The position numbers were made by a program, and so were the translations under genes. Positions 2,920-11,671 of a stretch of DNA of 64,000 bases are shown in pieces. Each line of letters opens with the position of its first letter. The first letter of the stretch is position 1. Origin of the DNA: Clostridia bacterium (GTDB lineage: Bacteria > Bacillota > Clostridia > Christensenellales > UBA1242); assembly GCA_045651685.1 (NCBI GenBank), contig JAZRSV010000005.1, forward strand, positions 13,592 to 77,591, written 5' to 3'. The notes beneath the pieces were generated by a model. That model did not search any database, was not told the DNA's origin, and worked only from the letters and a program-made list of their open reading frames with translations.

Positions 2920-5478
2920 TTAGTCTATTTGGACTTTTTCTCTTATGCTACATTCGATGATGTCGCCTTCTAATATGTCATTAAAACCATCAATTTTAAT
3001 ACCACACTCAAAGCCAGCCAAAACTTCTTTAGCATCATCTTTTTCTTTACGCAATGTAGCAATTTTGCCTTCGAACAATACATTGTCTTTGCGCATTACT
3101 TTTACAAGACCGTTTCTAACGATCTTACCATCAAGCACTCTACAACCAGCAACTGTACCAATACTACTAATCTTAAATAGTGCTCTAACCTCTGCATGAC
3201 CAACAACTTTGTCTTCGTATTTTGGAGCAGCAAGACCTTTTATAGCATGTTCTACTTCGTCTAATGCTTCGTAAATAATGCTGTATTGTTTAATTTGAAC
3301 ATTGTTATGTTCTGCCATAGACAATGCTTTGTTATCAACTTTTATATTAAAGCCAATAATTATTGCGTTAGACACTTGTGCAAGTTGAACATCTGTTTCT
3401 GTTACAGCACCTACCGCACTATGAATAACTTTTACTTCTGCTTCGTCAGAACTTACTTTTGACAACATTTGTTTTAGAGCTTCGGCAGAACCTTGAACAT
3501 CAGACTTAATAATCAAGTTAAGAACTTTCTTATCTTCGCTTGGGTTGCGACTCAAGAAGTCATCAAGACTTGTGCCAAGACCTTTTTCGGCCATTTCGTT
3601 AGCCATTTTTGCTTTACGCTCTTGAATAACATTTTTACTTAATTTTTCATCAACTGCTTGTACTTTGTCACCAACATTTGGTACATTGTCAAAACCAAGA
3701 ATTGATACTGGTGTAGAGGGACCAGCTTTTGTAATGTTTTTGCCTTTGTCGTCAATCATTGCTCTTACACGACCAAAGCAGAAACCAGATACAACTGTAT
3801 CACCAATTTTTAATGTACCGTTATTAACAATAACATTAGCAACAGGACCTTTACCTTTGTCTAGTCTTGCCTCAACTACTGTTGCAACAGCACTCTTATC
3901 TTTGTTAGCACGCAAATCTTGCATTTCTGCAACTAATAAAATCATTTCTAGCAACTTATCAATACCAGTACCAGCTTTTGCAGAGATAGGTACCATAATA
4001 GCATCGCCACCCCATTCTTCTGGTAAAACTTCGTATTCGGTAAGTTGTTGTTTAATTCTATCGATATTAGCTTCTGGCTTGTCAATTTTGTTGATAGCAA
4101 CAATCATAGGTACTTTTGCAGCTTTGATATGATTGATAGCTTCTACTGTTTGAGGTTTTACGCCATCATCTGCAGCAACAACTAAAACAGCCAAGTCAGT
4201 TATTTGAGCACCTCTAGCACGCATACTTGTAAACGCTGCGTGTCCTGGAGTGTCAATAAATGTGATTTTTTCGTTATTCCAATTAATAGAATAAGCACCG
4301 ATGTGTTGTGTAATACCACCAGCCTCGCCTAGTATTACATTTGTTTTTCTGATATAGTCAAGCAAAGAAGTCTTACCATGGTCAACATGACCCATAACTG
4401 TTACTATTGGAGGACGACGCTCTAGGTTAGTATCGCTGTCTTCGCTAACAGTGTCAGTAAGTTGTTCTTCGTATGTTTTATCAAGCTTAAATTCTAGTGT
4501 TATGCCAAGTTCACTTGCAACAAGTTCTGCCGCAGTAAAATCGATAACACTATTAATAGAAGCCATAATACCCAAACTCATAAGTTGTTTTATGATTTCG
4601 GTGACTGGCTTACCAATTTTTTCTGACAATAATTTTACAGTTAAGTTAGGGGTTGTAATAACTGCATTAGTTATTGCTGTATATACAGGTTGAACTTCTT
4701 GTTTAGGCTTTTTAATTTTTAACTTTCTAGTGACCATACGCTCTTCGATATTGCGCTCTTCTATTAAGCCACGAGAAAGAAGTGATTTTTTGTTAAGTTT
4801 TTTGTCCTCTTGTGGTTTGTCATGAGTTTTTTTCTTGTTAGAATAATCTCTCTCTTTATTAACAAAAACACTTGCTGCACTTGTTAGATCTGCCTTGGCA
4901 GTTTTTGCAGAACCAAATGCAGGTTTTGGACCAAAAGGTTTTTTAACATCTTTGTTTTGTGTGTTAAATTTGTTATTTGGGTTAAACTTTTGACCAGGTT
5001 TTTCACCATTTTGATTGTTAAATCTAGGTCTATCTTGACCAGCAAATCTAGGACCACGACCTTCTTGATTGTTGTATGCAGGTCTGCTTTGATTATTGCC
5101 TTGCCAAATAGGTCTAGGACCTTGCTGTTTAGAAGCAAATTGTTGTTGAGGTTTTTGTTGCTCAACTGGCTTTGGTTGTACAGCAACAGGTTTAGGTTCT
5201 ACCTTCTTCTCTACAACTTTTGGCTCTACCTTTTCTTCTACCTTTGCAGCAGCAGCTTTTTGTTCAAGAATAGCTTGTTGCTTTTGAGCTAGGTCTTTGT
5301 TCTTTTTAATTTCACCCAATTTTTCTTTTAGGCCATCGTAAAAACTAGACAACTGTTGTTTTGTCTTTTTTACTTCTTTGAACAATGTTGGTACACTGCC
5401 GTCTGCATTTAACTTTGCAACCAACTTAATATTGTCCAAGTTTTGTTGATTTTGTTTTTCTTTAACTATTTCTGCCAA
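2920..5478 (-). CDS. infB: Translation initiation factor IF-2 (TTG start)
   Basis: RPPIVTVMGHVDHGKTSLLD, GGITQHIGA, DTPGH, NKID. Confidence 0.98.
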   Translation of the reverse strand: MAEIVKEKQNQQNLDNIKLVAKLNADGSVPTLFKEVKKTKQQLSSFYDGLKEKLGEIKKNKDLAQKQQAILEQKAAAAKVEEKVEPKVVEKKVEPKPVAVQPKPVEQQKPQQQFASKQQGPRPIWQGNNQSRPAYNNQEGRGPRFAGQDRPRFNNQNGEKPGQKFNPNNKFNTQNKDVKKPFGPKPAFGSAKTAKADLTSAASVFVNKERDYSNKKKTHDKPQEDKKLNKKSLLSRGLIEERNIEERMVTRKLKIKKPKQEVQPVYTAITNAVITTPNLTVKLLSEKIGKPVTEIIKQLMSLGIMASINSVIDFTAAELVASELGITLEFKLDKTYEEQLTDTVSEDSDTNLERRPPIVTVMGHVDHGKTSLLDYIRKTNVILGEAGGITQHIGAYSINWNNEKITFIDTPGHAAFTSMRARGAQITDLAVLVVAADDGVKPQTVEAINHIKAAKVPMIVAINKIDKPEANIDRIKQQLTEYEVLPEEWGGDAIMVPISAKAGTGIDKLLEMILLVAEMQDLRANKDKSAVATVVEARLDKGKGPVANVIVNNGTLKIGDTVVSGFCFGRVRAMIDDKGKNITKAGPSTPVSILGFDNVPNVGDKVQAVDEKLSKNVIQERKAKMANEMAEKGLGTSLDDFLSRNPSEDKKVLNLIIKSDVQGSAEALKQMLSKVSSDEAEVKVIHSAVGAVTETDVQLAQVSNAIIIGFNIKVDNKALSMAEHNNVQIKQYSIIYEALDEVEHAIKGLAAPKYEDKVVGHAEVRALFKISSIGTVAGCRVLDGKIVRNGLVKVMRKDNVLFEGKIATLRKEKDDAKEVLAGFECGIKIDGFNDILEGDIIECSIREKVQID

Positions 5479-5479
5479 A

Positions 5480-5794
5480 TTAGTTCACCCCTATAATAAT
5501 GTCTAATGAATTGTCTATAATTGCCTGTGCAAGACTGTGGTTTTTGATACCAATTATCTTGCAATTATCTTTGTTTAATAATTCTGCAAGTGTTGCTTGC
5601 TTTGTGACAAACGCCTTGCAATTTTTGTTTGCTGCAACCAAATTTTTTGCAACTGTTATATATTTATCATTTGCAGTATGACACACTATAACCAAATACA
5701 ACTTTTTTGTATAAAGCTTTAGGTTGTCTATCCCATATATAATACTGTTGCTTTTTTGAGCAAAACCCAAATATGTAGATACTTTATTTTCCAA
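5480..5794 (-). CDS. L7Ae-family RNA-binding protein (YlxQ-like)
   Basis: YLGFAQKS..IIYG motif and position between ylxR and infB; TTG at 5794 with GGAGGA RBS. Confidence 0.75.
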   Translation of the reverse strand: MENKVSTYLGFAQKSNSIIYGIDNLKLYTKKLYLVIVCHTANDKYITVAKNLVAANKNCKAFVTKQATLAELLNKDNCKIIGIKNHSLAQAIIDNSLDIIIGVN

Positions 5795-6041
5795 TAGTAT
5801 CCTCCAAAAGAGCATAACTTTGCTCGCTGATGTTTTGCTTAAAAGCTTTGTTTAACATTTTTGTTTTGATACATTTTTGTATACATTGTTGATCTTTGCA
5901 AACATATGCACCCCTACCATTTGCCTTAAATGTAGGATCAATAAAAACTTCGCCTTCTTTGTTTTTTACAACTCTAACAAGTTCTTGTTTTTGTTTCATT
6001 TGTCTGCAAACAATACACATTCTAAGTGGTGTATCTTTCAT
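5784..6041 (-). CDS. ylxR: YlxR (DUF448) RNA-binding protein
   Basis: PLRMCIVC...LVRVV...GRGAYVC..C; downstream of nusA. Confidence 0.92.
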   Translation of the reverse strand: MKDTPLRMCIVCRQMKQKQELVRVVKNKEGEVFIDPTFKANGRGAYVCKDQQCIQKCIKTKMLNKAFKQNISEQSYALLEDTIGK

Positions 6042-6057
6042 ACAAACCTCTCAAATA

Positions 6058-7212
6058 TTATTCTTCGTCCAAGTCTGACATGATGTCCATATCGTCCATT
6101 GTGTCGTCACCAATGTCATATACTTCTGGTTCTTTGTTTAAGAACAAGTCACCATCAATACTCTTTGCTGCTGTTTCGCTCTTAACATCTATCTTCCAGC
6201 CAGTAAGTTTAACTGCAAGTCTAACATTTTGACCGTTTTTGCCGATAGCAAGTGATAGTTTGTCATCTTTTACAACTGCACGAGCTGTTTTGTCACCTTC
6301 TAAAGCATAAACTGTATCTACTTTAGCTGGGCTTAATGCTCTTGCGATATATTCTAGTGGATTTTCTGACCATTCGATGATGTCAATTTTTTCACCATTA
6401 AGTTCGCCAACAATTGTGTTAACACGCAAACCTTTATTACCAACACAAGCACCAATTGGATCCAAATTTGCATTAGCAGTATAAACAGACATCTTTGTAC
6501 GATATCCAGCTTCACGAACGATGTTCTTAATTTCTACTTCGCCACTTTCGATTTCTGGTACTTCTAATTCAAACAATCTCTTTACAAAACCTGCATTGCT
6601 ACGAGAAACAGGTACGCAAGTTGCTTTCATATTTTCTCTGATAGGTTTTACATATACTTTTAGTCTAGCGCCTACTTGATAAATTTCACCAGGGATTTGA
6701 TCTTTTTCTTGCAAAACACCTTCAGTTTGAGTTCCTGGAATTTCTACATAAACAGAACCAGCCTCTACTCTTCTGATGATGCAAGTAATAAGCTCATTTT
6801 GTTTTTCTGAAAGTTCACTCATAGCTACTTGTTGTTCTGCCTCTCTCAATCTTTGCATAACAACTTGTCTTGCTATTTGAGCAGAAATTCTGTCAAAGTC
6901 TTTTGTTGTCACTTCTTCCATAACAACATCGCCAACTTTGTATGACTTTTTGATTTGTCTAGCTTCTTCTAAAGTCATTTGTTTATCTGGATCTTCTATT
7001 GCGTCTTCGTTTTCTACAATAGTTTTATAACCATAAACTTTGATAGTGTGTTTTTCTGGGTTTAGTTTTACTTCTACAGATTTTGCTTCGCCAAAATTCT
7101 TTTTGTAAGCAGAAGTAAGTGCTAGTTCTAGAGATTCTAAAAAGTACTCTTTGTTAATTTTCTTTTCTCTTTCTAAATCATCAAGTGCGTTAAAAAAATC
7201 TTTGTTAATCAT
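6058..7212 (-). CDS. nusA: Transcription termination factor NusA
   Basis: S1 and KH domains: REAGYRTK, DPIGACVG, SLAIGKNGQNVRLA. Confidence 0.97.
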   Translation of the reverse strand: MINKDFFNALDDLEREKKINKEYFLESLELALTSAYKKNFGEAKSVEVKLNPEKHTIKVYGYKTIVENEDAIEDPDKQMTLEEARQIKKSYKVGDVVMEEVTTKDFDRISAQIARQVVMQRLREAEQQVAMSELSEKQNELITCIIRRVEAGSVYVEIPGTQTEGVLQEKDQIPGEIYQVGARLKVYVKPIRENMKATCVPVSRSNAGFVKRLFELEVPEIESGEVEIKNIVREAGYRTKMSVYTANANLDPIGACVGNKGLRVNTIVGELNGEKIDIIEWSENPLEYIARALSPAKVDTVYALEGDKTARAVVKDDKLSLAIGKNGQNVRLAVKLTGWKIDVKSETAAKSIDGDLFLNKEPEVYDIGDDTMDDMDIMSDLDEE

Positions 7213-7227
7213 TGTTTCAAATTTCTC

Positions 7228-7695
7228 CTAAAATATTATATATGGTTGACATACTGCAATTTTTTGTCTTGGAATGTCTAGCTGCTTTTGCTCTGTTTGT
7301 ATAGAAAGTATTTCTGCATCAAACTTGATAAGCTTGCCGACAAATTCTTTTTTGCCATCTAGTACAGTATAAAGTTTGACTATAATGTCTTTGTTTAAGT
7401 AGCGCTCATAGTCTCTTTCGTACTTAAAAGGCCTGTCTAACCCTAGTGACGATACATTTAATGTATACGAAGCACCGTTTGTTGGATCCAATTCGTCCAG
7501 TGGCAAATCTATTGCCCTGTGTACTGTCTCACAATCATTAATTGTAATTGGACTTAAGTCTGCTTTTGCTAAAAACACAGTCAAGTTCATGCCGGTATAT
7601 TTTTTTGCATATTCGACATCTGCTAGTTCATAACCTAAGCCTTCTACAATTGGTGTTATGTGATCAATAACCATTTTTTCTATCTTGCTTGGCAT
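7228..7695 (-). CDS. rimP: Ribosome maturation factor RimP
   Basis: ITINDCE, YTLNVSSLGLDRP; first gene of the nusA operon. Confidence 0.93.
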   Translation of the reverse strand: MPSKIEKMVIDHITPIVEGLGYELADVEYAKKYTGMNLTVFLAKADLSPITINDCETVHRAIDLPLDELDPTNGASYTLNVSSLGLDRPFKYERDYERYLNKDIIVKLYTVLDGKKEFVGKLIKFDAEILSIQTEQKQLDIPRQKIAVCQPYIIF

Positions 7696-7714
7696 AATAC
7701 CCCCTAACTAACAA

Positions 7715-7740
7715 TTAAGAGTGGGTCTCCCCACTCTTAA
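7715..7740 (-). terminator. rimP-nusA leader hairpin (probable NusA-dependent attenuator)
   Basis: Perfect stem TTAAGAGTGGG-gaga-CCCACTCTTAA between promoter and rimP, weak U-tract; a GAGTGGG/CCCACTC hairpin is typical of Firmicutes rimP leaders. Confidence 0.75.
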
Positions 7741-7764
7741 CAAGCATCATATATAAGCATATGT

Positions 7765-7793
7765 AGTATAACACATAGTATTATAAATTTCAA
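7765..7793 (-). promoter_or_regulatory. SigmaA promoter of the rimP-nusA-infB operon
   Basis: TTGAAA-17 nt-TATACT with extended -10 TG. Confidence 0.7.
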
Positions 7794-7800
7794 GTACTAA

Positions 7801-9375
7801 TTATAATAATTTCAAAAAAACTTCTGCAGTGGCAATAGTATCGTTAATAGCTCTATGCGCGCCAACTAGACTAATGCCCAAATAACCCGTCACAGTCTTA
7901 AGATTATGGTGTTTTAGATTGCTTAATTTTACCCTAGCCATATGCAAAGTGTCGTACTTGGCATTGTCAAAATTATAACCCAATCTCTTTGCATTAGCAT
8001 CAATAAACTTACAGTCAAAATCTATTGCATTGTGACCTACCAAAGCTGCCCCTCTAGTAAACTTATAAAAGTCTGGCAACACTTGGTTGATACTGCAAGC
8101 GCTAGCAACCATTTCGTTGGTTATATTATTAATTGCAGTTGCTTCTGCAGGTATAGGTTTTGAAGGCTTAACAAATGACCAAAAAGTTTGTTTTATTACA
8201 CCATCAACAACTTTTACTGCACCTATTTCTATTATTTCATCTTTTTCAAAATCTAGTCCTGTAGTCTCTAGGTCAAACACAACAAATGTCTTGCCGATAG
8301 CTTTTGGGTTAACATCTACATTTGCCTCGTCAAACAAGTTGCCTTGTTTACTGCTTTCGTATGCTTGAGGTATAACAAAATTATAATCAGTAGTTTCTTT
8401 TTTGAACTGTGTATTGTCTATCTCATCACCTATTTCACACAGAGCCAAATCTTTTACCTTTAAGCTAAATCGTTCGTTAAAGCTCTCAACATCACCTCTA
8501 ACCAAAACAGTTGAACCATCGCTAATCAAGTTCATCTTATGAATATTAGCCTTATTTGGAAAACATACACATTGTATTTGCAAAGCGCCATCTTGCAATA
8601 CAAATCTAAAATATTGCTTTTCTAATTGGTGCTTTTCGCCATCTTCGCCTTTTACCATACGCTTTGATAAAAAGCTTTTCATCTCAAAAAACTTAACCTT
8701 GCCGGCAAATACCCTATTAACAGCTTCTTTGTTTACAACATGCTCTGGGTCTACATCAATGTCCTCACCAATTAACTTTTGCTTGTTAGACACCTTAAAT
8801 CTACGATTCATATTGTTAACATACGCAGTTGCTGTGCTTATTTCTTCTATCTTGCGTTGGCGTTCTTGCAAAAACGAATCATACTCTTTTGAGTCTACAC
8901 TATATGTGTCAATGTTTATCAAAAAGCTGCCACAAAAATTAAAATTAAGCTTTGCAATAAGGTCACTTTTTATATCTTTTTTGGCAAAATAATCTGCCAC
9001 AAAATCATCAATAGTAAAGTTAATTTTTGCTTGTTTGTTTTCTACCTCTACTTTTATAGTATCAGTATTACAACTATCCTTTACACTTGCATGGTTGCTA
9101 TAAAAGTAGTTTATAACAAACTTTTGAATCAAATTTGGATCAAGATAACTTTTTCTTATCTTAACTTCTACAGGAGCAGTAATAGACAAGTTTTTTATAA
9201 CAAGTTGAGTTATTTTTTCTTTTTGCTCTTCGGTAAGATCTGGCACATCCTGATCATAGATAAAAGACACAACACATTTTTGTTCTTGCTTAAAGTATGT
9301 CACTTCGCTAAGCTTAAGAAAACTAAACTCGTTGTTTGTTTTTGTGTTAATATAATCAACCAAAGAATAATTCAT
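7801..9375 (-). CDS. PolC-derived protein: PolC N-terminal domain + OB fold + DEDDh 3'-5' exonuclease, no PHP or polymerase domain
   Basis: Occupies the polC position (rseP-X-rimP). ExoI FVVFDLETTG, ExoII GHNAIDFD, ExoIII HRAIND. OB-like FRFVLQDG..IQC..VLVRGDVE. ATG at 9375 with AAGGAGGAG RBS; stops right after the exonuclease. Confidence 0.85.
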   Translation of the reverse strand: MNYSLVDYINTKTNNEFSFLKLSEVTYFKQEQKCVVSFIYDQDVPDLTEEQKEKITQLVIKNLSITAPVEVKIRKSYLDPNLIQKFVINYFYSNHASVKDSCNTDTIKVEVENKQAKINFTIDDFVADYFAKKDIKSDLIAKLNFNFCGSFLINIDTYSVDSKEYDSFLQERQRKIEEISTATAYVNNMNRRFKVSNKQKLIGEDIDVDPEHVVNKEAVNRVFAGKVKFFEMKSFLSKRMVKGEDGEKHQLEKQYFRFVLQDGALQIQCVCFPNKANIHKMNLISDGSTVLVRGDVESFNERFSLKVKDLALCEIGDEIDNTQFKKETTDYNFVIPQAYESSKQGNLFDEANVDVNPKAIGKTFVVFDLETTGLDFEKDEIIEIGAVKVVDGVIKQTFWSFVKPSKPIPAEATAINNITNEMVASACSINQVLPDFYKFTRGAALVGHNAIDFDCKFIDANAKRLGYNFDNAKYDTLHMARVKLSNLKHHNLKTVTGYLGISLVGAHRAINDTIATAEVFLKLL

Positions 9376-9392
9376 ATGCTCCTCCTTATAAA

Positions 9393-9427
9393 AAAATTTA
9401 AGCAAGGCAAGTTACCCTGCCTCGCCC
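9393..9427 (-). terminator. Stem-loop between rseP and the PolC-derived gene (possible terminator or processing site)
   Basis: GGGCGAGGCAGG-gtaa-CTTGCCTTGCTT followed by AAATTTTT. Confidence 0.5.
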
Positions 9428-9436
9428 AATATCACA

Positions 9437-10705
9437 TTATAAAATAATGTGTAGCAAATCTACAACTATAACAAAGGCAAACAAAATCATCATGCCTATT
9501 GAGTGTATATACGCCTCGACTTTTCGGTTAACAGGCTTTCTAAATATCCATTCGTACAGCACAAATACCATTCTTGCGCCATCAAGCGCAGGTATTGGCA
9601 ACCAATTAAATACGGCTAGGTTTGCCGAAATAAGTGGCAGTAGTAAAAAGAAGTTTGCAAAAGATGCTTGAGTTGCAGAGGCAATTGTTGTTATTGTACC
9701 AACCGGACCAGTCATGCCCAAAATTGACACCTTGCCGCAAATTAAGCCCCACAAGATAAGCAACACTTTCCACGCCCAGCCAAAAGTAAATGGTATAGCG
9801 TGAAGCAACGCCTCACCAAAGCTATAACGATAATATTTAGTTGTTAGTCCAACTTGAGCAATACTAAACACATTGCCATCGTCAGTAACTTTTAATCTGG
9901 TATCACCTATTATAAATACACCGTTTTGATCACTTTTGTATACAACGCTAACATCGTTTGTTGCGTTTAATACATACTTACCATCATCTGTTGGTGTTAG
10001 TGTATAGATATAGTCTTTTTGTGTTGGATTAGACAAGGTAGAAAATATCTTTCTGCCGTTGCCATCAACAATATATTTAAGCTCGTTGTATTCTACATTA
10101 GCTTTGATAACCATTTTTTTGCCATCACGAATAATATTGACATCAAAATACTCGGTATCTTCAAAGTTAACGATCATAGATCTAAAGTATTTGTCGTATA
10201 CAAAAGAAGTTTTTTCTCCGTTAACACCAGTTATGATGTCACCCTCCATAAACCACTCTTGAGCAGTACCATAAGGATTGCGATTGGCACTAACAACTTG
10301 TATACGATCGGCATATCCATAAAAAGTCAAAAATATAACCGAAAATATTATACCGGCAAGCAAGTTAAAAAACGCACCCATAAACAAGACAATTAGTCTT
10401 TTCCATGGTTTTTGATTGTTAAATGCTTGTGGATTATCTTTACCATCTTCGTCTTCACCTTCAAATGCACAATAACCACCCAAAGGTATAAGTCTTAATG
10501 ATATTTTTTCGCCAGCTTTGTTTGTTTTTTGCCACAATTTTTTACCAAAGCCAACAGAAAATTCGTTAATCTTAAATTTTAATAATTTGCCGGCAGTATA
10601 ATGTCCAAGCTCATGAATCATAACCATTAGCAAAAGAACAACTATCGCCAACAAAATATATAAAATAGAAGACATAACTGATCCAAAACTTAATAAAAGT
10701 GACAA
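9437..10705 (-). CDS. rseP: RseP/RasP site-2 intramembrane Zn metalloprotease (M50)
   Basis: HELGH, IPLGGYC, NWLPIPALDG; follows cdsA. Confidence 0.93.
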   Translation of the reverse strand: MSLLLSFGSVMSSILYILLAIVVLLLMVMIHELGHYTAGKLLKFKINEFSVGFGKKLWQKTNKAGEKISLRLIPLGGYCAFEGEDEDGKDNPQAFNNQKPWKRLIVLFMGAFFNLLAGIIFSVIFLTFYGYADRIQVVSANRNPYGTAQEWFMEGDIITGVNGEKTSFVYDKYFRSMIVNFEDTEYFDVNIIRDGKKMVIKANVEYNELKYIVDGNGRKIFSTLSNPTQKDYIYTLTPTDDGKYVLNATNDVSVVYKSDQNGVFIIGDTRLKVTDDGNVFSIAQVGLTTKYYRYSFGEALLHAIPFTFGWAWKVLLILWGLICGKVSILGMTGPVGTITTIASATQASFANFFLLLPLISANLAVFNWLPIPALDGARMVFVLYEWIFRKPVNRKVEAYIHSIGMMILFAFVIVVDLLHIIL

Positions 10706-10726
10706 AAGTGTCTTCCCCCTAACAAA

Positions 10727-11671
10727 CTATGCAAATATAAATAACATGCAAATAAATACAAATAAAGTGTTAAAGCAAATAGCGTCTACTCTATCAAGCA
10801 CACCACCATGACCTGGTAGAATGTTTGAAGAATCTTTTACGCCTGATTTGCGTTTTAAGAAAGATTCGAAAATATCTCCCACTTGAGATATCATAGAACC
10901 AAACAAACCAACAAATAAGAACTTCCACCAAATTTTGCCAGAGAAAAGCATTACTGGGTATATTGCGTTAAATACAAAATAAACAACAATAGCACCAACT
11001 ATACCACCAACAAGACCAGCGCAAGCACCAGAAATTGTTTTGTTTGGACTAATTTTTGGACAAAGCTTTGGTCCGCGAATAAGAGAACCAAAAATATAAG
11101 CAAAGGTATCTGACAAGCTAGCTATAGCAAATACTAGCAAGATGCCCATAAGTCCTAAATTAACATTAGCAAATCTTTTTGCAACATCTGTAAAGCCCAT
11201 CACAGTAAAGTGATTAATCAAATACATAAATGCAAACAACATTGTTGGATACAACATTGCATAAACAGTATTTGTTGCCTTAAACAATGCAAATTTGTTT
11301 ACAGACATATTTGTTGCACATCTAAAAGTGTCATTTTTTAGATCGTTTTTGTAGGCAGTGATGCTTAATACATAGTTGATACCAAACAACAATGCTAACA
11401 AAATAATATCTGTCAAAAACAAATAAATAGCTGTAAATCCAAGTGTGACAAATAAAATATTAAATGCACATACTGCAACAGCATAAGTCACAGCTACAAA
11501 CTTATAGTTTGGTTTACCCCATTTGTTAAGCATGTTGCAAAATTCAATTGCACCCAAAACGCTTACCATGCCAACAAACACATCAAACGCTTGTGGAATA
11601 TATACTTGTAGCAACAAAAATGCAGCAAGCATAACAACCAATAGCGTACCAGTAATTATTCTTTGTTTCAT
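10727..11671 (-). CDS. cdsA: Phosphatidate cytidylyltransferase
   Basis: SDTFAY, ISPNKT, GDIFESFLKR, KDSSNILPGHGGVLDRVD. Confidence 0.95.
   Translation of the reverse strand: MKQRIITGTLLVVMLAAFLLLQVYIPQAFDVFVGMVSVLGAIEFCNMLNKWGKPNYKFVAVTYAVAVCAFNILFVTLGFTAIYLFLTDIILLALLFGINYVLSITAYKNDLKNDTFRCATNMSVNKFALFKATNTVYAMLYPTMLFAFMYLINHFTVMGFTDVAKRFANVNLGLMGILLVFAIASLSDTFAYIFGSLIRGPKLCPKISPNKTISGACAGLVGGIVGAIVVYFVFNAIYPVMLFSGKIWWKFLFVGLFGSMISQVGDIFESFLKRKSGVKDSSNILPGHGGVLDRVDAICFNTLFVFICMLFIFA

Follow-up and report, generated by a model that had tools for sequence, protein, structure and literature searches.

What does a PolC do once its polymerase is gone? In Firmicutes, PolC is regarded as the signature replicase, and the polC slot between rseP and rimP is filled, in the 64,000-nucleotide (nt) stretch of Clostridia bacterium DNA analysed here (assembly GCA_045651685.1, contig JAZRSV010000005.1, positions 13,592 to 77,591; the whole stretch is called the window below), by an open reading frame (ORF) of 524 amino acids (aa), compared with about 1400-1470 aa for full-length PolC. 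We refer to its product as mini-PolC. An earlier note, made from the letters of the window alone, had read this frame as a PolC reduced to its N-terminal domain, OB fold and proofreading exonuclease. Comparison across genomes indicates that mini-PolC is a functional, vertically inherited polC derivative without a polymerase and with a single origin, and that it is conserved under purifying selection in genomes where DnaE1 is the only C-family polymerase. We consider that it probably serves as a PolC-derived accessory subunit of the replisome, a clamp-tethered second proofreader for DnaE1.

Domain architecture of a truncated PolC

The mini-PolC ORF occupies 9375..7801 on the minus strand of the window, running from an ATG at 9375-9373 to a TAA stop at 7803-7801, and is preceded by GGAGG (9385-9381) with a 5-nt spacer. 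An alternative TTG at 9405 would extend the product to 534 aa, but the ortholog starts match the ATG instead. Coordinates, ribosome-binding site and neighbouring genes all agree with the earlier description of a 524-aa frame with a strong ribosome-binding site at the polC position. The features of the gene are as follows, with the evidence in brackets.

7801..9375, minus strand: mini-PolC coding sequence (sequence, Pfam, NCBIfam, 81 distinct orthologs)
9381..9385, minus strand: GGAGG ribosome-binding site, 5 nt ahead of the ATG (sequence)
8896..9375, minus strand: PolC-type N-terminal domain, aa 1-160, two alpha/beta (KH-like) subdomains (hhalign, model, fold matches)
8800..8895, minus strand: long connecting helix, aa 161-192 (AlphaFold2 model, helix 162-189/191)
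8431..8799, minus strand: OB fold, aa 193-315 (Pfam, 3f2b profile match, model strands 195-315)
8296..8430, minus strand: linker, aa 316-360, vestige of the N-terminal PHP half (alignment with full-length PolCs; translation)
8332..8346, minus strand: QGNLF, aa 344-348, candidate beta-clamp-binding motif of the form QxxLF (translation, conservation)
7804..8295, minus strand: DEDDh 3'-5' exonuclease domain, aa 361-524 (RNase_T, TIGR00573, 2p1j match)

Pfam detected RNase_T at aa 365-520 (E value 3.2e-37) and the OB fold PF01336 (tRNA_anti-codon) at aa 253-310 (E 1.7e-8), and returned no match for aa 1-240, for PHP or for DNA_pol3_alpha (PF07733). The best NCBIfam match was the PolC model NF001688, which scored 168.9 bits against a cut-off of 873 and was limited to model positions 8-332 and 419-589; a second PolC model, TIGR01405, scored 136.1 bits, below its cut-off of 1043, and the dnaQ domain model TIGR00573 was passed at 101.2 bits (cut-off 71.5). 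All exonuclease motifs are present (D368-L-E370, H448-N449..F453-D454 and H507-R-A..D512), and the protein ends 12 residues past D512, where orthologs have 0-15 extra residues. The DEDDh exonuclease with its full set of catalytic motifs and the OB fold at about aa 195-315 were thus both correctly recognised from the sequence of the window.

Profile comparisons place mini-PolC closest to PolC. A profile of 18 mini-PolC orthologs aligned collinearly with a profile built from 11 full-length PolCs that belong to other families within the order (probability 100%, E 1.1e-70, aa 5-521 versus PolC 10-597). When aa 1-165 were compared alone with the PolC N-terminal domain using hhalign, the match extended over 143 columns (probability 95.4%, E 1.8e-8), while controls consisting of five column shuffles and one reversal were far weaker (E 0.33-0.82), which upholds the assignment of a PolC-like N-terminal domain to this region. 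The OB fold matched that of the PolC structure 3f2b (E 8e-5), and the nearest solved chain by sequence profile was the PolC exonuclease 2p1j (E 1.4e-64), with epsilon (E 7e-29) and ExoX (E 1.7e-22) more distant.

The same alignments show what was removed. Relative to full PolC, mini-PolC lacks a 33-residue N-terminal PHP block with the HxH motif and the helix that follows it, and everything downstream of the exonuclease, the C-terminal PHP half included. The linker between OB fold and exonuclease (aa 316-360) aligns with the remaining N-terminal PHP stretch (TDYNFV-IPQAY versus PolC TDHGVVQAFPDAY), and its Y331 and P336 are nearly invariant; judged from this alignment, the linker is what remains of the N-terminal PHP half. 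The view that two separate segments had been lost is therefore correct, with the first deletion a partial one, and the accompanying claim that both PHP halves and the polymerase were gone holds for the C-terminal PHP half and the polymerase core, whereas the N-terminal PHP half was only partly deleted.

An AlphaFold2 model built from 76 sequences (mean predicted local distance difference test, pLDDT, 90.9) consists of two alpha/beta subdomains, a helix, an OB barrel, the 45-residue linker and the exonuclease, and the best Foldseek match of the whole model was the full-length PolC structure 9qpc (395 columns, E 8e-19). Because fold searches with the whole model returned mostly exonuclease domains, the N-terminal domain was also folded alone (pLDDT 94.2), and gave KH-type matches with middling Z scores: Z 6.1 to tau domain V (5fku_E; root-mean-square deviation, rmsd, 2.7 over 69 residues), 7.1-7.2 to DnaA domain I and 5.7-6.9 to DciA. 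The tau domain V value does not stand above unrelated rows, and a Z below 8 may reflect a common arrangement only. Foldseek matches of the N-terminal domain to BON domains, type III secretion system (T3SS) ring domains and the NusA KH domain, together with the VIA matches, were set aside as generic alpha/beta or KH-like folds with middling scores. The PolC N-terminal region has been proposed to comprise two domains related to tau domain V (PMC3919608, PMC12926913), and among the modelled folds only the match to tau domain V agrees with that proposal, of which fold scores alone are no proof.

Distribution, selection and the partner polymerase

The genome survey covered 61 genomes, namely the source genome of the window (G000) and 60 relatives, 36 from the same family and 24 from other families of the order. 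Full-coverage short-form frames of 509-561 aa were found in 31 of the 36 same-family relatives and in 9 of the 24 others; a further 14 of these 24 carried PolC frames of 1405-1474 aa, and one 51%-complete bin was ambiguous. Intact polC at this position in close relatives, which the earlier note took as the sign of a recent deletion or misassembly, is thus not what the family carries. One genome, G032 (92% complete), yielded neither a mini-PolC gene nor rseP, and its region may be unassembled, so this absence does not count as a sign of loss. About 60 further short-form genomes came from a scan of species representatives, and the short-form relatives are labelled Clostridia, Christensenellaceae, Ca. 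Onthoplasma, Ca. Scatosoma, Ca. Coproplasma and Ca. Gallimonas. In the 21 loci examined for gene order (L002-L022), rseP lay upstream in 19 and rimP-nusA downstream in 20, and full-length PolC loci of the same order had neighbours identical to those of the mini-PolC loci.

From 84 closed-end sequences of 480-600 aa, three duplicates were dropped to give an ortholog set of 81 distinct sequences of 492-596 aa, which share 26-78% identity, intact frames and a common length and architecture; a 596-aa sequence (L097) was excluded, its match being confined to the exonuclease domain. The protein collection held 1288 matches of 288-917 aa at E <= 1e-10, and the best 120 were nearly all 505-540 aa long. 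Annotation of this family is inconsistent: names among the listed matches include "hypothetical protein", "DNA polymerase III epsilon subunit family exonuclease", "3'-5' exoribonuclease", "exonuclease domain-containing protein" and, in one case, "PolC-type DNA polymerase III".

In a FastTree phylogeny of the 81 short forms and 21 full PolCs (cut to 760 aa; 498 columns, rooted on Lachnospiraceae-type PolCs), the short forms were monophyletic (Shimodaira-Hasegawa-like support 0.91) and stood next to the full-length PolCs of their own order. The tree built from DnaE (40 genomes, 1147 columns) separated 27 short-form from 13 full-form genomes by one bipartition with support 1.0, although the two trees are not fully independent, because DnaE may have changed after PolC loss. 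Sampling across the class (251 genomes) detected the short form in 9 of 10 same-order genomes and, among the 150 of 251 rows listed, in no genome of any other order. As a separate observation, 41 of the 251 class genomes gave no match at E <= 1e-12 to mini-PolC, which was the sole query, and whole families were without one (for example f27, 0/4, and f38, 0/5). These genomes agree with the PolC-less, DnaE1-only Clostridia reported in PMC3919608.

Purifying selection is visible both in the catalytic residues and across the gene. D368, E370, N449, D454, H507 and D512 are invariant in all 81 sequences, and approximate ratios of nonsynonymous to synonymous substitution rates (dN/dS, NG86) were 0.03-0.21 in 12 of 12 pairs. 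Of 15 per-domain estimates, 12 were scorable and gave 0.02-0.31, the remaining three being undefined at a proportion of synonymous differences (pS) of at least 0.75. The exonuclease had values of 0.02-0.07, the lowest of any domain in two of three pairs, and the N-terminal domain 0.08-0.18. With dN/dS far below 1 in every scorable domain and the frames intact, the gene does not look like a decaying pseudogene, as had been supposed from its clean reading frame.

The source genome (1.10 Mb, 33 contigs, 100% complete) contains one PF07733 place, a 1209-aa DnaE that passes NF005298 and NF004226, and one RNase_T place, mini-PolC itself; PolA is present. Searches of this genome found no second alpha-type PHP domain besides that of DnaE (PF02811), no matches to the PolC model NF001688 beyond mini-PolC and DnaE, and no family B polymerase (PF00136), and a full-length PolC or a PHP-polymerase half elsewhere, which would have refuted the earlier proposal, is accordingly absent from it. 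A 265-aa open frame with a PHP match (E 6.5e-11; G000:C2:6390-6692, minus strand) lies ~1.5 kb upstream of dnaE and is unrelated. Exactly one PF07733 place was present in each of the 46 genomes without a full PolC frame, among them assemblies of ~3 contigs (G028, G036, G059) and several of ~3-9 contigs. Of 15 PolC genomes, 13 had DnaE plus PolC, G055 (86% complete) had PolC only and G047 had several places. DnaE1 is the only C-family polymerase in the genomes without full PolC, in keeping with the suggestion that the lineage replicates with DnaE alone; DnaE1 would then probably copy both strands.

The DnaE of the source genome keeps the nine PHP metal ligands when aligned to Taq DnaE, a pattern scored as active in PMC12926913, and the check called for in the earlier note found the site intact in 40 of 40 genomes, including all 27 checked that lack full PolC. 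An intact DnaE1 site implies that the mini-PolC exonuclease would be a second proofreader and not the sole one. This DnaE also has an internal QFSLF motif at residue 944. Relative to the DnaE of full-PolC relatives, the DnaE of the short-form clade carries insertions of ~8 residues near 500 and ~7 near 1020, which in the G000 protein (L114 1305-4931, minus strand) correspond to residues 496-503 and 1020-1025, together with three clade-diagnostic substitutions at residues 588, 718 and 814. On contigs of at least 15 kb, 604 of 770 crudely called ORFs (~78%) lay on the GC-skew leading strand, an estimate that is partly circular because coding-strand composition feeds GC skew. Gene-strand bias is reported as 78% in PolC-bearing species and 58% in species without PolC (PMC11040001).

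Proposed function and alternatives

How a polymerase-less PolC could have come to serve DnaE1 can be set out as follows. An ancestor within one order of Clostridia would have carried PolC and a DnaE1-type polymerase, and in-frame deletions would have taken out the beginning of the N-terminal PHP half together with all that follows the exonuclease. DnaE1 would then copy both strands, and the remnant would accompany the replisome as an accessory subunit whose DEDDh exonuclease clears mismatched 3' ends of DnaE1 in trans, a second proofreader next to the DnaE1 PHP site comparable to the clamp-bound mycobacterial DnaQ. Recruitment may depend on a QxxLF motif that arose in the PHP vestige, on the OB fold for single-stranded DNA (ssDNA), and on the KH-like N-terminal domain. 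The PolC N-terminal domain has been proposed to contact the clamp loader. Two precedents bear on the exonuclease: in B. subtilis, errors of DnaE are corrected in trans by the exonuclease of PolC, in a complex of DnaE, PolC and template (PMC5627055), and in mycobacteria a clamp-binding DnaQ works together with the PHP proofreader (PMC11348249).

The candidate motif stands out in an otherwise variable linker with the pattern Y331..V334-x-P336..Q344-x-x-L347-F348. The QxxLF element has the shape of a beta-clamp-binding pentapeptide, and in the alignment it overlies a former PHP strand. Of the 81 sequences, 73 have the Q at the aligned position, 80 have a hydrophobic residue at 347, and 72 have the F. 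Full PolCs carry QxxLF within their final 12 residues (by a strict pattern, in 16 of 21), and no QxxLF was found between OB fold and exonuclease in the 21 checked. A complex prediction for aa 316-524 with a DnaN dimer scored 0.55, against 0.00 for the best of three controls, and returned no interface; the runs agreed on at least 82% of contacts, with partner pLDDT of at least 81. In calibration, at scores of 0.60 or below the mark was reached by 7 of 80 solved complexes and by both passing mismatched pairs (2 of 110).

Several points weigh against the accessory-proofreader reading. The DnaN score is a weak pass that may owe something to clamp-peptide complexes already solved, and not every sequence has the motif, the Q being missing in 8 of the 81 sequences and the F in 9. 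With the DnaE1 PHP site intact in every genome checked, proofreading need not rely on mini-PolC. The dN/dS values are rough because synonymous sites are near saturation (pS 0.53-0.75), all of the genomes are metagenome assemblies, and the exonuclease-less forms described below, found in three genera, mean that the exonuclease is dispensable in some lineages.

A more far-reaching version, which we hold to be possible though on balance doubtful, makes mini-PolC an obligatory third subunit of an as yet undescribed Pol III core in Clostridia (DnaE1 plus mini-PolC). There the KH/tau-V-like domain and the OB fold would tie DnaE1 to either the clamp loader or the helicase, and the exonuclease would edit in trans. 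If that were true, the series from PolC through mini-PolC to the N-terminal-plus-OB form would be a living record of an embedded proofreader becoming a separate epsilon-like subunit, and of a PolC + DnaE1 system turning DnaE1-only.

The exonuclease-less forms raise a rival possibility, that the core function lies in the N-terminal domain and OB fold, acting as a replisome scaffold or ssDNA adaptor that links, for example, DnaE1, the clamp loader or the helicase, with the exonuclease as an optional passenger. In three genomes of the same family (3 of 37) the frame after rseP encodes such a form, with 343 aa in G010, 312 aa in G020 and 217 aa in G007.

L197 2577-3605, minus strand: exonuclease-less form in the polC slot of G010
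L198 2518-3453, minus strand: exonuclease-less form in the polC slot of G020
L199 2482-3132, plus strand: exonuclease-less form in the polC slot of G007

These frames end just past the last OB strand and together match the short form over aa 4-315 (probability 99.9%, E 7.7e-36), and five database proteins of 307-322 aa, at 36-41% identity, share the form. No adjoining rimP was found by BLAST at the three loci. No RNase_T domain was found in G010 (91% complete), G020 (83%) or G032, and G007 has only a distant one, located elsewhere. The recurrence at one locus of forms of about 300-320 aa (the shorter G007 frame apart) implies a role of its own for the N-terminal half, to which its low dN/dS and the resemblance of its fold to KH-like protein-binding modules (tau domain V, DnaA domain I, DciA; at middling scores that may, as noted, reflect a common arrangement) lend some weight. 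The exonuclease, however, is the most conserved part of the 81 short forms, with catalytic residues invariant and the lowest dN/dS of the domains in most pairs, and the forms that lack it are few; a scaffold with a passenger exonuclease is on this evidence unlikely.

A repair or recombination 3'-5' exonuclease working away from the fork, in the manner of ExoX, ExoI or the DinG-linked exonuclease and using the clamp as a landing pad, is improbable. It would draw on the fact that many repair proteins bind the clamp, on the close fold matches to DinG-exonuclease and ExoX structures, and on the position of mini-PolC as the only RNase_T-type exonuclease of its genome, because of which any DEDDh repair task would fall to it. 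Set against this, its closest sequence relatives are PolC exonucleases, well ahead of epsilon and ExoX in the profile comparison, and the PolC-specific N-terminal domain, OB fold and polC locus have been kept across the clade. Finally, it is very unlikely that the gene is an artefact, that it is a pseudogene in decay, or that it is half of a polC whose polymerase part lies elsewhere: metagenome bins can miss genes, but 81 divergent sequences of one length and architecture with intact frames are under strong purifying selection, a single PF07733 place recurs in 46 of 46 genomes of this kind, some in few contigs, and the searches of the source genome revealed neither a second alpha-type PHP domain nor a PolC polymerase half.

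Neighbouring sequences, known systems and significance

All genes around mini-PolC lie on the minus strand, in the order uppS, cdsA, rseP, mini-PolC, rimP, nusA, infB. The features that flank the gene are the following.

9437..10705, minus strand: rseP, upstream neighbour defining the polC slot (TIGR00054, 208.7 bits; synteny)
7228..7695, minus strand: rimP, downstream neighbour defining the polC slot (RimP_N and DUF150_C; synteny)
7765..7793, minus strand: promoter-like site ahead of rimP, TTGAAA-17-TATACT, TG-extended (consensus match only)
9398..9429, minus strand: terminator-like hairpin and T-run, after the rseP stop and ahead of the mini-PolC ribosome-binding site (consensus match only)

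The promoter-like site (7793-7765) comes directly after the mini-PolC stop, and rimP starts 105 nt downstream of that stop, so that the frame does end straight after the third exonuclease motif with a rimP promoter candidate next, as first described. The terminator-like hairpin overlaps the alternative TTG start of mini-PolC. Consensus inspection of the sequence identified no promoter for mini-PolC itself. The rimP leader contains a 12-bp stem-loop after the promoter-like site (7714-7741, minus strand), and an Rfam search of window positions 5000-11000, stem-loop included, gave no match at E <= 0.1. Among the sequencing datasets listed as containing window positions 7600-9500 there was no RNA dataset, and the DNA datasets contained small shares of it (at most 0.15).

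Elsewhere in the genome, dnaX (L116, G000:C32:7848-11909, positions 1495-2969) is a 369-aa ORF with domains I-III only, ending TCA AAA AAC TAA. The -1 frame, which is open from the A_AAA_AAC heptamer on, then holds an ORF of 109 aa that by profile comparison corresponds to the C-terminal domain of the longer DnaX of relatives (probability 98.3%, E 1.1e-14); BLAST of this ORF against long DnaX tails gave no match at 1e-3. The A-run, the AAC TAA end and the open -1 frame recur in G024 and G031 and are absent in G011, and many genera of the family have a DnaX open frame of 364-391 aa. This dnaX is a candidate for recoding, through a -1 frameshift or through slippage in transcription, that would yield a long tau-like form, the inverse of what E. 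coli dnaX does.

Mini-PolC has in common with full-length PolC its succession of domains (N-terminal domain, OB fold, DEDDh exonuclease) and the slot between rseP and rimP, and PolC supplies its closest sequence and fold matches; it differs in its length, in having no PHP fold, palm, thumb, fingers, HhH or C-terminal clamp motif, and in the QxxLF of its OB-exonuclease linker, a place where none of the full PolCs checked has one. It resembles E. coli epsilon (DnaQ) as a separate DEDDh polypeptide (fold rmsd about 2 A) with a DnaE1-type partner polymerase and a clamp-binding-type motif adjoining the exonuclease domain. In epsilon the clamp motif follows the exonuclease domain, whereas in mini-PolC the motif precedes it; and the C-terminal segment by which E. 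coli-type epsilon binds the PHP domain of alpha has no counterpart in mini-PolC, whose partner DnaE1 has an intact PHP. Mini-PolC arose independently, by truncation of PolC, and has the extra N-terminal domain and OB fold. With the noncanonical mycobacterial DnaQ (PMC11348249) the likeness is one of working mode only, a proposed clamp-bound extra proofreader beside the active PHP of DnaE1: origin and architecture are separate, and the role is experimental there and inferred here. The Exo-less PolCs of Clostridia and Negativicutes described in PMC3919608 also show PolC domain loss in PolC + DnaE1 lineages, in mirror image, the polymerase being kept and the exonuclease lost.

Loss of PolC in some Clostridia and PolCs without an exonuclease are already known, and what is new on present evidence is a conserved PolC remnant kept as a separate protein. 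Three replication systems have been distinguished (DnaE1-only, PolC + DnaE1 and PolC + DnaE3; PMC3919608, PMC12926913), in surveys that discarded truncated sequences; a form like mini-PolC would have dropped out of PMC3919608 because fragments without the polymerase active site were removed. No description of a polymerase-less PolC was found in the accessible full texts, and the supplementary tables of both surveys could list such fragments.

The remnant offers a handle on the poorly understood PolC N-terminal domain, which is kept even where the exonuclease has been lost. PolC inhibitors such as ibezapolstat (PMC13003532) would be expected to find no polymerase target in these bacteria, and the clade could test the need for the PolC polymerase in maintaining a high gene-strand bias. 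Mini-PolC would furnish a natural example of a separate proofreading subunit derived from a polymerase, and it marks a large and common gut lineage of small-genome Clostridia as an intermediate, with DnaE1 as the sole C-family polymerase and a conserved remnant of PolC beside it.

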